Shown piece by piece: positions 26,733 through 30,828 of a stretch of 64,000 nt of DNA. The stretch lies in the IMG/VR virus record IMGVR_UViG_3300024999_000068, positions 22,551 through 86,550 of that record. One strand, 5' to 3'. Source of the DNA: a virus. Within the stretch, counting starts at the first letter, position 1. Each line of letters begins with the position of its first letter. A model generated the notes under the pieces. It did not search any database and was not told the DNA's origin. It was given only the letters and a program-made list of their open reading frames with translations. A program made the translations under genes and the position numbers.

Positions 26733-27203
26733 ATGAACTCTGAAGAACTATGTGAAGAATGCATTGATAAAGAGGATTTAACTATCAAAGTAAACGAGCT
26801 TTCTAAATTGATATATGATGAAACAGTTCAAGTAGTATTTGATTTCGGATATTTACAAATAGAAGATGGAATTGGTGAATGTGAAATCTGTTTATCGGAA
26901 CTATATAGAGATAAATTATATATCCGTATAAAAAGATATGAAGAAGAAACTATGCAACCTTCTTATAAAAACTCTACTATTGAAATTAAAAGTAATCAAA
27001 TTAGTGATATTGATATTCACTCTGAAGAATTTAAAGATGGTTTCAAATGCATAGCAACTATCTATTTAATAAACCCAGATCACGATGTGACATTTTACTT
27101 AGTAGGAGATACTATAAAAGATCAGGAAAAACGTCCCAATAAATTTTATGAGATGTATAAAGAAGATATTATAGAATTTCATAACTCTAAAAATGAGTCG
27201 TAA
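26733..27203 (+). CDS. Hypothetical acidic protein
   Basis: 156 aa, GAGG RBS, coupled to the upstream gene. Confidence 0.6.
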   Translation: MNSEELCEECIDKEDLTIKVNELSKLIYDETVQVVFDFGYLQIEDGIGECEICLSELYRDKLYIRIKRYEEETMQPSYKNSTIEIKSNQISDIDIHSEEFKDGFKCIATIYLINPDHDVTFYLVGDTIKDQEKRPNKFYEMYKEDIIEFHNSKNES

Positions 27204-27280
27204 TGTAGTAATAAGAAGGTGGGGAAGTAACTTTCCCTTTCTCTCTTTTCCTCCATGTAAATATAAAAATAAAATTATAC

Positions 27281-27309
27281 TTGACAATATAAATTGCTAG
27301 TGGTATAGT
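27281..27309 (+). promoter_or_regulatory. Sigma-A promoter
   Basis: TTGACA-17-TATAGT with TG extension. Confidence 0.75.
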
Positions 27310-27501
27310 TAGGACAAGAGAAAGCGAGGTGAGGAAATATATGATTGTAACCGATACATAACTGATACATAAACTACAAACTACAAAATTCACAAGTGTC
27401 TATAAAGACAAAAATAAAAGTATTACGTTATTAACTCCTTACCTACCAAGGATTAATATAAATAGGGTTGTGACCTACACTAAATTAGAAAGGGGCAAAT
27501 T

Positions 27502-28062
27502 ATGTCTAAAAATATTAATATTGAAACTCAAGTTCAACTCGATGAAAAAAGTCACACTATTCTCAATGAGAAATTAAAAACCTTCAATTTAGACAGTGAT
27601 ATGAATTATGCCGTAGCAGTTCTGAAAATATTTATTACAAATTCAGAATCAAAGAAATATAATAAGTTAGCTGTTAACGTTGTGCCTAAAGTACAATTTG
27701 TTGTACCATTTGTTTCAAAAATATTAGCAACTGAATATATGAAGGAATTGTCTCAGAAAAACAAATTAATGATGTTTCTTCATGTTGAAAAAGGCAATAT
27801 TGTTGTAAAAGATGAAGATATTGATTTAGCTATTAATAATTTATTAAATACATCAACAAGTCCAGAAATAGAATATGAAGAAATATCTAGATTAAGTTTA
27901 TTCAATCTTATTGCCTATAATTGGATGAATTTTTCAGAACAAGAAAAAGATGAATATGCTTATAAGTTGGGAGGATTGAACGGGCATTATCATATACGAG
28001 CATTACTTGATAAGTGGGAGTTTAGTCCTGAGTTTGAGAAAGAAGTAGTAAACTATATATAA
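27502..28062 (+). CDS. Hypothetical protein
   Basis: 186 aa, AAAGGGG RBS. Confidence 0.6.
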   Translation: MSKNINIETQVQLDEKSHTILNEKLKTFNLDSDMNYAVAVLKIFITNSESKKYNKLAVNVVPKVQFVVPFVSKILATEYMKELSQKNKLMMFLHVEKGNIVVKDEDIDLAINNLLNTSTSPEIEYEEISRLSLFNLIAYNWMNFSEQEKDEYAYKLGGLNGHYHIRALLDKWEFSPEFEKEVVNYI

Positions 28063-28150
28063 AATTTATTAAATATGGTTAGCAATATCTACTGTGGTGG
28101 GCAGTAGATAATATATAAGATTAAATAAATATTAGAAAGAGGTTGTAAAA

Positions 28151-28501
28151 ATGGAATTTACAAAAGTCATTAAGCATGAAATCAGTGGAGTTTATGGAAA
28201 TGTTACATATGGAGATCTTAATTTAAATGGAGAATATTATCCTTCTAGGTATAATTCAGAAGAAAGAAGTATTGATACAGAAGAAACTATTTCTCAAACA
28301 GATGAATTAAATGGGTTGCCAGAAGGTATAAGTATGAATGATTATTTCAATATGGCATTATTACAAAGATTAGATAGTATTGAAAAGAATATTAAGGGTT
28401 TACAAAATGTTTCTGTAAATATTACATTAGATAATATTTCAAATGAACTTCTTGTTAAATTGGCATCACTTATTTGTGGAGAGAGTGTAAAGATAAAATA
28501 G
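28151..28501 (+). CDS. Hypothetical protein
   Basis: 116 aa, AGAGGT RBS. Confidence 0.6.
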   Translation: MEFTKVIKHEISGVYGNVTYGDLNLNGEYYPSRYNSEERSIDTEETISQTDELNGLPEGISMNDYFNMALLQRLDSIEKNIKGLQNVSVNITLDNISNELLVKLASLICGESVKIK

Positions 28502-28510
28502 AGTATCTTT

Positions 28511-28746
28511 GACTAACCCATAGCAGAGGGGCTTATACTCTGCTAGTTAATAAAGGCAGACTTAGTGGCCTAAAATCGAAGAAGGGTTTGTAAATCCTTA
28601 TTTATAAGGTTGAATTGCTCTCGATGAGGTAATGGGAGTTATGCGAATGTGAACTATACATAAAAAATATTAAGATATTCGCACCTATTGAAACTGCTGG
28701 CACAAATACCGTCAGCACATCTTATATGTATATGCAAAATTGCAAC
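28511..28746 (+). ncRNA. tracrRNA of type V-F (Cas12f1) system; 5' boundary approximate
   Basis: Ends in a 30-nt anti-repeat (28717-28746) perfectly complementary to 28812-28841; CTCGATGAGGT-stem-GAAACTGCTGGCACAAATACCGTCAGC parallels the AsCas12f1 tracrRNA as recalled; loop CTTATA of the 5' hairpin can pair with repeat end TGTAAG. Confidence 0.78.
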
Positions 28747-28811
28747 AATTTAATATGTTCGCACTTTATGCGGTTGCAAGGGTTGGTATGATAGGGAATT
28801 GGTGTTGGATG

Positions 28812-28955
28812 GTTGCAATTTTGCATATACATATAAGATGTAATTTTCTTTCAAAATTTATTTTATTGGTTGAATTTTCATATATGTAAAGATGTAAGTG
28901 ACAAGGGATTTTTGACGCTAGTTACCGTAATATTTGTATATATTAAAAATGTAAG
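28812..28955 (+). CRISPR. Degenerate mini-array, 3 repeats
   Basis: R1 GTTGCAATTTTGCATATACATATAAGATGTAAT 28812-28844; R2 GTTGAATTTTCATATATGTAAAGATGTAAG 28869-28898; R3 ...GTAATATTTGTATATATTAAAAATGTAAG ending 28955; spacers ~24 and ~22-28 nt. Confidence 0.7.
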
Positions 28956-29007
28956 TTATATCTTTTGTTTGTCTTTGTATAAAATAATTATAAAAAGGAT
29001 GATATAA

Positions 29008-30327
29008 ATGAACAAATGTGTAAAAATTGAAATAAAGAATTATTTTAATTATAAACAAGTGCTTAGAGATTTAAGATATCAATCTTGGTTAGCTTGTAAC
29101 AAGGCAATGATATATTATTATACATTTAACTTAGAAAAAATAGAGTATAAGAACCTAAACGGTATTAATATAGATGAAAAAAATAAATTTGGTAAATCTT
29201 ATATGACATGGGTAGAAGATCATATGAAAAAAGTTATGAATATACATAATACCAGAAATATATCTCAAACAAATCAATTTGTTTCCAAAAGATTTAAATC
29301 AGATATTAAAAAAGGATTATTTAAGGGGCAAGTGCTCTTATCAAACTTTAAACAAAATATTCCTATACTCTTAAAAAATGATAATTATAAAATTATACAA
29401 GGTAATAAAGGGTTTGAAGTTAAATGTAGTTTATTTAATACATCATATCAAAAAGAAAACGATATAAAACAAGTTAATTTCACTATTAATACATTAGATA
29501 CTAGTAAAAAATCAATCTTAAATAGACTAATATCAGGCGAATATAAACAAGGATCAGCACAAATCATTGAAGATAAAAAAGGGAAGTGGTACTTAATAAT
29601 CAGTTTTAGTTTTGAACCAGTTGTAAGACAGTTGGATATGAATAAAGTATTAGGGGTTGACTTAGGAATTGTAAATACAGCAACAATGCAAGTATTTGAT
29701 ATAGTTACTGAAAAATGGGATAGAATATCATGGAAAGAAAGTAAAATCAATGGTAGCGAGTTAATTCATTATAGGCAAAAGATTGAAGCAAGAAATAAAC
29801 AAATGTATATTGCCAGTAAAATAGTTGGTAATGGCAGGATAGGACATGGTAGAAAAGTTAGATTGAAACCAGTAGAGAAAACTAGAGATAAGGTTAGTAA
29901 ATTTAGAGATACATATAACCATAAAGTTAGCAAAAATATAGTTGATACTGCATTAAAATACAATTGTGGAACTATTCAAATGGAGAATCTAAGTGGATTT
30001 TCTGAACAACAGTCAGAGAAATTTTTAAAAAATTGGTCATATTTTGATTTACAGACTAAAGTTAAATATAAATGTGAAGAAAAGGGTATTAAATTTATCT
30101 TGATTGACCCAAAATACACTAGTCAAAGATGTAGTCATTGTGGATGTATTGATTCTGCTAATAGGGATTGTAAGGGCAATCAGGCTAAATTTAAATGTGT
30201 TACATGTGGACATGAAGAGAATGCAGATATAAATGCTGCAAAGAATATTAGTATTCCAATGATTGATAGTATTATTATAGAGTGGTTGAAGATGATGAGT
30301 AAATTTAAGGATAAGAAGGTTGGTTAA
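29008..30327 (+). CDS. cas12f: Cas12f1-like (type V-F, TnpB-derived) RNA-guided nuclease, 439 aa
   Basis: RuvC triad GVDLG / IQMENL / NADINAA; Zn ribbon CSHC..CVTC; co-linear with AsCas12f1 as recalled (SGEY..SAQII, KWYL.IS..FEP, GHGR..R.KP.E..RDK...FRDT.NH, FL.NW.Y.DLQ). Confidence 0.85.
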   Translation: MNKCVKIEIKNYFNYKQVLRDLRYQSWLACNKAMIYYYTFNLEKIEYKNLNGINIDEKNKFGKSYMTWVEDHMKKVMNIHNTRNISQTNQFVSKRFKSDIKKGLFKGQVLLSNFKQNIPILLKNDNYKIIQGNKGFEVKCSLFNTSYQKENDIKQVNFTINTLDTSKKSILNRLISGEYKQGSAQIIEDKKGKWYLIISFSFEPVVRQLDMNKVLGVDLGIVNTATMQVFDIVTEKWDRISWKESKINGSELIHYRQKIEARNKQMYIASKIVGNGRIGHGRKVRLKPVEKTRDKVSKFRDTYNHKVSKNIVDTALKYNCGTIQMENLSGFSEQQSEKFLKNWSYFDLQTKVKYKCEEKGIKFILIDPKYTSQRCSHCGCIDSANRDCKGNQAKFKCVTCGHEENADINAAKNISIPMIDSIIIEWLKMMSKFKDKKVG

Positions 30328-30362
30328 TTAATTTTAAATCAAAGAGAATAAGGAGATTTAGA

Positions 30363-30808
30363 ATGATATATTTGGAAGGTTATTTTGATGGAAGTGTAAA
30401 AAATAACAAATCAATTTATGCTTGGATTTACACAGTATACAAAAAGAAAAATTTAAACCAAAAATATTATTAAAAACAGAAAGTGGATGGGATTTTTGCT
30501 TCAATGCTAGTGTTTATGAAACTGAGTATTTAGGATTAATTAGTTTATTAGATTATATTATTCATAATGAACAATATATTGTAGAAAGAATTTTAATAAA
30601 AGGAGATTGTAAAAGTGTTTTTATTACAATTAATCCTGTCAGATACAGATTGAAAAAATCTTTTAATGAATATATATTGTTGGCAAGAGAATTAAAAGAT
30701 AAGTTGCATTTAAAGTATTTAATACCGATTGAACTTAATTGGGTTCCTAGAGGAGGTAATAAACCTGCTGATAATTTATGTAAATATGTTTGGAAGAATA
30801 TAATGTGA
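30363..30808 (+). pseudogene. RNase H-like gene split by a -1 frameshift (pseudogene, recoding site or sequence error)
   Basis: ATG 30363 gives MIYLEGYFDGS... and stops after 36 codons; -1 frame carries E.EYLGL, IKGDCK, WVPRGGNKPAD. Confidence 0.65.
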
Positions 30809-30828
30809 ATATAAATTTCTAAGTAAGG

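Follow-up and report, generated by a model that had tools for sequence, protein, structure and literature searches.

A probably usable type V-F1 CRISPR-Cas12f cassette with an eroded array in a tailed phage

How little of a CRISPR (short palindromic repeats that are clustered and regularly interspaced) system can a phage carry for that system still to be of use? The question is raised by a locus at positions 28511–30327 of a stretch of phage DNA, in which the gene for a small RuvC nuclease lies directly behind a structured RNA and three worn repeats. The window, by which we mean the whole stretch that was analysed, is 64,000 nucleotides long and corresponds to bases 22551–86550 of the 86,550-bp IMG/VR virus record IMGVR_UViG_3300024999_000068, which CheckV puts at about 57% of a complete genome. 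In our judgement the locus is probably a phage-borne, self-contained CRISPR-Cas12f cassette of type V-F1 (formerly V-U3), inserted in the manner of a moron and still in a usable state. Its classification as CRISPR is supported by the homology of the nuclease, by covariation in its trans-activating CRISPR RNA (tracrRNA), by the arrays that stand beside 49 of 59 homologues and by the phage hallmark genes around it. A preliminary description made from the bare sequence had named the same class, a phage-encoded V-F system with tracrRNA, degenerate mini-array and Cas12f1, and these four lines of evidence bear it out. The features of the cassette described below all lie on the + strand.

The nuclease is encoded by an intact open reading frame (ORF) of 439 amino acids (29008–30327), with RuvC residues D218, E326 and D407 and a zinc finger formed by C375, C378, C397 and C400. 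It has the architecture of a compact effector, that is, a protein of approximately 400–700 amino acids whose C-terminal RuvC is interrupted by a zinc-finger/TNB insert. The protein matched the Pfam family PF07282 (Cas12f1-like TNB) with 78.3 bits, where the cut-off is 26.3, and OrfB_IS605 with 29.3 bits, slightly under its cut-off of 30.5; among NCBIfam models it scored 167.8 bits with guided_TnpB and 122.3 bits with CRISPR_Cas12f2, the latter far under the 450-bit cut-off. When it was compared by phmmer with all PDB chains, the best five distinct sequences were 8j1j, 8j12, 7wju, 8dzj and 8j3r (422–446 amino acids; E 1.9e-89 to 4.7e-88 over query residues 14–428), followed by a 433-amino-acid ‘Cas12f’ (9nzq, 3.8e-76) and a 500-amino-acid Cas12f1 (9i8y, 1.7e-64). 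Chains of Un1Cas12f/Cas14a.1 reached E values of 1e-24 to 1e-25, and a 384-amino-acid ‘Transposase’ chain 1e-10. We take 8J12 and 8DZJ to be AsCas12f1, although this is not evident from the names given by their depositors. The preprint on the AsCas12f1 structure mentions 7WJU (bioRxiv 10.1101/2023.07.03.547593), and the 422-amino-acid AsCas12f1 chain aligned over its full length to the window protein (E 3.6e-88).

In the HMMER alignment of the two proteins, D218, E326 and D407 lie opposite D225, E324 and D401 of AsCas12f1, the first of which gives, as D225A, a published dead mutant (PMC8548392). D218 and E326, together with the four zinc cysteines, are invariant across an alignment of 36 homologues, and D407 is kept in at least 90% of them. 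The nuclease with all three RuvC acids that the preliminary description had reported is thus what the ORF, the Pfam match and the alignment to AsCas12f1 all indicate. Furthermore, when the gene was compared with its orthologue in the closest relative, locus L001 (82% amino acid identity), the ratio of non-synonymous to synonymous substitution (dN/dS) was 0.154 with a dS of 0.70, which shows cas12f to be under purifying selection.

The RNA component lies upstream of the gene, where a tracrRNA region of about 200 nt (28549–28764) is conserved in nine loci and is 85% identical over 295 nt in L001. A search by nhmmer recovered this region in at least nine distinct loci; E values went down to 2e-14 among the nine taken further, and other loci gave weaker matches. 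When the nine were aligned and folded with RNAalifold, the predicted common structure contained 54 pairs, and compensatory changes occurred in 19 of these. In this fold 92.4% of the alignment cells were paired, compared with 31–40% when the partners were slid by 1–3 columns; pairs changing on both sides numbered 19, against 5–7 in the slid controls, and not one of 500 shuffles matched any of the observed covariation measures. The two anti-repeat:repeat helices (helices 7–8) hold 11 compensatory pairs across the nine loci. In the window the predicted stems occupy 28554–28571, 28596–28629, a nested stack at 28630–28690 and 28695–28717, followed by the anti-repeat at 28717–28749, and every conserved helix is retained. 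The tracrRNA is therefore structured and conserved, and its anti-repeat co-varies with the repeats among the relatives. Rfam gave no match at E ≤ 1 within 27000–32000. Between the anti-repeat and the first repeat, a leader (28765–28811) with conserved columns carries a TG-n-TATGAT-like element, which could be an extended −10 box. In L001 (3290–3325) and in the close relative L018 (2300–2335), a strong sigma-70-like site, TTGACA-17-TAAACT with TG before TAAACT, lies about 120 nt 5′ of the tracrRNA.

Behind the leader follow three repeats and two spacers. The anti-repeat (28717–28749) and the repeat arm at 28809–28841 are 97% complementary over 33 nt, with a perfect core of 30 bp. Repeat 1 (R1, 28812–28844) is 33 nt long, ends in GTAAT and contributes 30 nt of perfect complementarity to the anti-repeat; repeat 2 (R2, 28869–28898) is 30 nt long, carries indels relative to R1 and has the 3′ end AAGATGTAAG, which is the consensus of the family; and repeat 3 (R3, 28926–28955), the terminal and most degenerate one, ends in AAAATGTAAG. 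All three finish in ATGTAA(T/G), and it is at these 3′ ends that conservation is best, R2 and R3 both having taken up indels. In pairwise global alignment R1 and R2 scored 14 (27 identical positions), R1 and R3 10, and R2 and R3 13, compared with a 99.9th percentile of 7 when 32-mers of the window were paired at random 5,000 times. The predicted duplexes with the anti-repeat had energies of −41.7 (R1), −23.3 (R2) and −17.1 kcal/mol (R3); shuffled repeats gave means of −6.7 to −8.9 kcal/mol (−6.9 ± 2.7 for R1), and the best shuffles reached −17.2, −16.8 and −14.2 kcal/mol for R1, R2 and R3, respectively. Since both the alignment scores and the duplex energies go beyond background, R1–R3 are real repeats, and an array of three elements that are degenerate and yet alike beyond chance stands next to the effector gene. 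In this the perfect 30-bp anti-repeat/repeat pair and the three diverged repeats with conserved 3′ ends of the preliminary description were both recovered.

The array is nonetheless eroded, its repeats being degenerate at their 5′ ends and its spacers short. The two short spacers seen previously were found at 24 and about 27 nt, with borders that had to be redrawn: spacer 1 (S1, AT-rich) occupies 28845–28868 and spacer 2 (S2) 28899–28925, the 3′ border of the latter being fixed to within ±3 nt, so that the repeats recur after 54 and then 57 nt. S1 is unique in the window even when up to 3 mismatches are allowed, and S2 is likewise unique there. The stretch after R3 (28956–29007), of which the first 20 nt had been put forward as a further guide, turned out to be the 5′ untranslated region of cas12f with its ribosome-binding site (AAAGGA, 8 nt before the ATG), and would act as a pseudo-spacer if R3 were processed.

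Regular arrays are found beside most of the homologues of this gene. Of 4,942 candidate database relatives of the 439-amino-acid protein, 1,589 had E ≤ 0.001; many of these are from Clostridium, C. perfringens plasmids included, and carry the source names ‘transposase’ or ‘TnpB’. Viral contigs, on which 72 of 224 pattern matches were confirmed, supplied 71 loci and genomes another 47; once five duplicate loci and those without a near-full-length gene had been dropped, 59 loci were left, some of them near-duplicates and hence not independent. Each was scored for at least one pair of 26-mers that were identical at 23 or more of 26 positions, with a period of 58–75 nt and no more than 1 kb from the gene. 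By this test 49 of the 59 homologous loci were positive, compared with 1 of 103 control regions lying 1.6–2.6 kb away. The arrays lay upstream of the gene in 21 loci and downstream of it in 26, while 2 loci had them on both sides; those of the relatives hold 2–8 repeats, and the multi-spacer arrays vary from one relative to another. In two more distant homologues, L011 (2501–2860) and L013 (2512–2628), the repeats are 30 nt long and end in TATTTAAAT, with spacers of 35–36 nt.

We propose that in the working cassette the tracrRNA would pair with the repeat-derived CRISPR RNA (crRNA), possibly within a single transcript that includes R1, that a homodimer of Cas12f would bind the tracrRNA:crRNA duplex, and that the 20 or so nucleotides 3′ of the repeat would guide the cutting of double-stranded DNA in dependence on a protospacer-adjacent motif (PAM). 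Such an activity may serve against phages or plasmids that compete for the host, as suggested by the spacers of a relative, which match without mismatch a rival C. perfringens phage-plasmid and, in one case, a plasmid. The crRNA of Cas12f keeps the 3′ ends of the repeats. Since these 3′ ends and at least 16–20 nt of spacer have been kept in the window, the R1-S1 guide is likely to be usable, and the R2-S2 guide probably so. The minimum spacer of AsCas12f1 is 16 nt (PMC8548392), which S1 and S2, at 24–27 nt, exceed.

The evidence on targets comes from the relative L011, a 49% identical homologue on a viral contig, whose array holds six clean 30-nt repeats. Its spacer 1 is identical over 35/35 nt to the tape-measure genes of three 37–38-kb C. 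perfringens ‘plasmids’ and over 33/33 nt to the tape-measure gene of phage phiSM101, and its spacer 4 is identical over 36/36 nt to a plasmid replication gene. Both of these protospacers have AATCA as their 5′ flank and unrelated 3′ flanks, which is the pattern expected from a 5′ PAM. This direct evidence, from one relative, suggests that the arrays of the clade are aimed at rival phages and plasmids. For the window phage itself, the earlier proposal of fixed guides directed against phages or the host stays conjectural, the 49%-identical relative being the sole source of evidence on targeting.

The spacers of the window were searched for at several depths. Within the window, S1, S2 and the post-R3 flank matched only themselves at up to 3 mismatches. 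When the arrays of the window, L001, L018 and two further relatives, L012 and L002, were compared by blastn-short with the gathered loci and the whole record, AT-rich matches of at most 17/18 nt were obtained. A comparison of arrays with GenBank phages at E ≤ 10 returned 58 records, of which the best had an E of 0.4; the rows listed were alignments of 43–52 nt at 75–80% identity, and none among the matches listed spanned a spacer. IMG/VR gave no match to S1 or, in two registers, to the post-R3 flank; for L018 and L002, a single spacer was tried from each, and both matched nothing there apart from the contig of origin. There were likewise no matches to a 20-mer of S2 in metagenomes, to S1, S2 or the flank in the whole records of four relatives (0/4), or to the spacers in five bacterial genomes that carry homologues (0/5). 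Several candidates were set aside on inspection. Near-matches of S1 in L001 and L012 showed no extension. An 18-mer of S2 was found in one IMG/VR contig, where the match stops at 18 nt, at an estimated level of about one chance match (with the size of the collection assumed); and a 19-mer of S2, minus its first T, was found in 23 contigs from organisms with a GC content of 0.60–0.65, flanked by CGCC, which we count as one chance event because all 23 carry the same conserved gene. Among 301 genomes of one family there was a single match, with 3 mismatches including positions 1 and 3, estimated to be at chance level. These chance estimates are rough calculations. Guide-directed homing was considered as well and set aside, since no spacer of the window, L001, L018, L012 or L002 matched an empty site.

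The carrier is a tailed phage of roughly 150 kb, given the CheckV completeness of 57% for a record of 86,550 bp and the PHROGs hallmark matches among the large ORFs of the window, which include a tape measure, tail proteins, a DNA polymerase, an exonuclease V/helicase and a ribonucleotide reductase. It is AT-rich and was recovered from a groundwater metagenome. Across the 86,550 bp of the record, which make up about 57% of the phage, profiles for Cas1, Cas2 and Cas4 gave nothing at E ≤ 1, and neither did that for the Y1 transposase TnpA (PF01797), in agreement with the preliminary description, which had seen no cas1/2/4 and no tnpA nearby; adaptation or transposition genes may possibly lie on the missing 43% of the phage.

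Comparison with near-identical phages shows that the cassette moves. A 186-amino-acid ORF of the window (27502–28062) has homologues with a protein identity of 97.7% in L001 and 98.2% in L018. In both of these the cassette lies upstream of that homologue, whereas in the window it lies between a hairpin and the gene at 30811, and so occupies a different site. The hairpin (28517–28545, + strand) forms the left boundary of the insertion and is present in one copy in the window; it is about 30 nt long, with an 8-bp stem TAGCAGAG/CTCTGCTA and a loop of 9–10 nt. Copies of it stand at gene ends in related phages (L001 6031–6069, L018 5341–5370, L031 2571–2601, L038 2174–2204). In L001 and L018 it lies approximately 700–1000 bp 3′ of cas12f, directly behind the homologue of the 186-amino-acid ORF, and abuts the homologue of the window sequence from 30811 onwards. 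Since the hairpin stays with these backbone genes while the cassette sits elsewhere, it lies outside the CRISPR module, and the first 38 bases of the locus (28511–28548), which contain this hairpin and had been counted as part of the system, belong to the phage backbone. No T-tract follows the hairpin, and it is therefore not a standard intrinsic terminator. What has been inserted between it and 30811 is the cassette together with a frameshifted RNase H-like gene (30363–30808), and the insertion, between the hairpin and the ribosome-binding site of the next gene, is moron-like. Junction comparison revealed no terminal repeats or target-site duplications, no dedicated search having been made for the ends of insertion sequences (IS; left and right ends, LE/RE). 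The 3′ flank of cas12f also differs, with the RNase H-like gene in the window and another phage gene about 20 nt past the stop codon in L001 and L018.

Is such a cassette still usable? Several findings weigh against the view that it is, and a number of them would fit a decaying relic instead, in which a system functional in an ancestor has lost its array to erosion beyond use and the nuclease gene has simply not yet had the time to decay. There are indels in the repeats, the ends of which are spaced 54 and 57 nt apart, about 10 nt shorter than the ~66 nt of the relatives; the window, together with L001, is among the 10 loci that miss the array test passed by 49 of 59, because their repeats are too degenerate. 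A repeat search of the whole record found no second array-like repeat, and thus no other array. None of the searches yielded a protospacer that could be believed, whether for S1, for S2 or for the flank behind R3, and the array of a second relative, L084, had no match in phages or plasmids. A search for consensus promoters returned 21 sites, compared with 21.9 ± 5.2 in shuffles and hence without excess, and 0 terminators, and the TTGACA-17-TAAACT site found upstream in L001 and L018 is missing from the window copy, where the cassette starts exactly at the tracrRNA. Moreover, cas12f is frameshifted in close relatives, once in L018 (3001–4319), twice in L012 (3001–4364) and once in L004 (3–681), so that the lineage evidently tolerates loss of the system. 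These three loci combine regular arrays with a broken cas12f, and the window and L001 an intact cas12f with degenerate arrays. Against a relic speak the full-length ORF with all its catalytic and zinc residues, the dN/dS of 0.154 relative to L001, the retention of every conserved tracrRNA helix and the perfect pairing of R1 with the anti-repeat. In addition, the parts of R2 and R3 that are conserved are exactly the 3′ ends kept by a Cas12f crRNA, and spacers of 24–27 nt stay above the 16-nt minimum. In light of these features we regard a relic as unlikely.

Two further explanations concern what kind of guide the RNA provides. The tracrRNA and R1-S1 might form one self-folding transcript, a natural single-guide RNA resembling an omega-RNA, and serve one fixed purpose, for instance to regulate a gene of the host or of a phage or to spread the cassette by homing. 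The anti-repeat and R1 are 59 nt apart on the same strand and fold jointly with −96 kcal/mol (z = −5.3), the cassette sits at different intergenic sites in phages whose flanking protein is 97.7% identical, and 0.8 kb downstream there is a gene for a homing endonuclease of the GIY-YIG/NUMOD3 type. However, no spacer of the window, L001, L018, L012 or L002 matches empty sites, related loci or records; in L018 the best-pairing repeat is R3, so that pairing in cis with R1 is no trait of the family; the relatives carry variable multi-spacer arrays; and the nuclease has its catalytic residues intact, unlike known regulatory dCas12f systems. A fixed guide of this kind is, we believe, very unlikely. 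Scarcely better placed, in our estimation, is the evolutionary version of the idea, by which array erosion would be a step from an adaptive array to a hard-wired guide, with tracrRNA-R1-S1 as natural single-guide RNA in a 2-kb selfish moron hopping between intergenic sites; were it true, a CRISPR system would be converging on a TnpB/omega-RNA lifestyle inside phages. The locus might, finally, be a TnpB of the IS200/IS605 type with its guide RNA, misread as CRISPR. Homologues bear the automatic names ‘transposase’ and ‘TnpB’, guided_TnpB is matched with 167.8 bits and the cassette has moved. Yet the record contains no Y1 TnpA; the guide-bearing RNA is upstream and consists of tracrRNA and repeats instead of a 3′ omega-RNA; conservation between the window and L001/L018 does not extend into the 3′ flank of the gene; regular arrays accompany 49 of 59 homologues; among solved structures the nearest relatives are Cas12f1 proteins that go with arrays; and the junctions showed neither terminal repeats nor a target-site duplication. 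All of this brings the explanation close to refutation.

As a probably usable Cas12f cassette, the locus is best compared with AsCas12f1 of Acidibacillus sulfuroxidans (V-F1; PDB 7WJU), a protein of 422 amino acids, compared with 439 here, that has the same D/E/D and CCCC residues. The single-guide RNA of AsCas12f1 consists of stems 1–4 and the duplexes R:AR-1 and R:AR-2 on a 171-nt scaffold (bioRxiv 10.1101/2023.07.03.547593), and its native tracrRNA is 169 nt long (PMC8548392), compared with about 200 nt in the window. The window tracrRNA is similar, with four stems and a two-part repeat:anti-repeat duplex, in a comparison of layouts and not of sequences; together with PDB matches down to E 1.9e-89 this agrees with the parallel to AsCas12f1 that had earlier been drawn for both protein and tracrRNA core. 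The order of the crRNA, repeat then spacer, is also the same. The gene order differs, being tracrRNA-array-cas12f in the window, while AsCas12f1 has its tracrRNA between gene and array (PMC8548392), and the window system is further set apart by its AT-rich phage carrier, its array of three decayed repeats and its spacers of 24–27 nt. The NTTR PAM of AsCas12f1 is read by H72, Y76, S92 and K96 (bioRxiv 10.1101/2023.07.03.547593); in the HMMER alignment, which is weak in this stretch, only S92 is identical in the window protein (S86), the others lying opposite T67, D71 and Q90. Since one of four PAM readers is kept, an NTTR PAM should not be assumed for this Cas12f, which is a caution rather than a result, and the T-rich 5′ PAM anticipated in the preliminary description likewise gains no backing from the protein.

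Type V effectors on phages are not new. V-F and V-U systems with compact arrays, nearly all without Cas1, Cas2 and Cas4, were described in huge phages in 2020 (Al-Shayeb et al., PMC7162821) and read there as tools against hosts or competing phages. They resemble the window in having type V effectors on phages with catalytic residues mostly kept, and are unlike it in that the phages exceed 200 kb and that other V-F/V-U branches are covered. A 2024 review reports that V-F is enriched on plasmids and that viral mini-arrays take part in inter-virus competition (PMC11656645), and Cas14a-like genes have been found beside solitary arrays on clostridial mobile elements (PMC8473940). Relatives of the window protein likewise occur on C. 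perfringens plasmids; the accessible parts of these two articles contain no description of a tracrRNA or of the phage lineage of the window. Orphan mini-arrays borne by viruses (PMC11656645) are similar in being very short and, as in the relative, in having rival elements as targets. They borrow the Cas proteins of the host, whereas the window phage brings its own effector and tracrRNA, the intact cas12f lying directly downstream. IS200/IS605 TnpB, for its part, shares the RuvC/zinc-finger core, RNA-guided DNA cutting and a mobile context, and differs from the window in that here there is no TnpA in the record, the guide RNA is upstream and in two parts, and there are CRISPR repeats and spacers that vary among relatives. 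No omega-RNA overlapping the 3′ end of the gene was seen, the 3′ flank being unconserved and the conserved RNA lying upstream. In the literature on phage-encoded Cas12f with mini-arrays outside subscription journals, we found no paper on the AsCas12f1-like phage clade.

Phage-borne V-F systems without adaptation genes have thus been known since 2020, and nothing in this locus alters what is known of this kind. What a cassette of about 1.8 kb without adaptation genes offers is a clean case, found in nature, of the small outfit with which a CRISPR effector module may be able to work, and evidence that phages carry such modules as movable cassettes. The gathered relatives provide a covariation-backed model of the tracrRNA for this branch, and with loci at differing stages of wear, in the array or in the gene, the lineage bears on the useful lifetime of phage-borne CRISPR modules. 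An AsCas12f1-like nuclease with a well-defined native tracrRNA is moreover a candidate compact editor that might be tried, since AsCas12f1 itself prefers 45–55 °C (PMC8548392).

Turning to the surroundings of the cassette, the RNase H-like gene directly 3′ of cas12f (30363–30808, + strand; Pfam RVT_3, 25.3 bits) is split by a frameshift. A 36-amino-acid N-terminal ORF with the motif GYFDGS ends at 30473, and the remainder lies in another frame at 30422–30808; either this is a pseudogene, or the assembly has gone wrong at an A-rich run. It is not present after cas12f in L001 and L018 and, relative to their backbone, was co-inserted with the cassette. Between the 186-amino-acid ORF and the hairpin lies an ORF of 116 amino acids (28151–28501) that has no Pfam or PHROG match and is missing from this place in L001. 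Four DNA sequencing runs, all from one study, contained at most 0.32 of the sampled words, and no RNA run was listed. Finally, the homing endonuclease gene 0.8 kb 3′ of the cassette (31112–32173) is SegE-like, with GIY-YIG and NUMOD3, and homologues of it adjoin cas12f in L003, L004 and L012.

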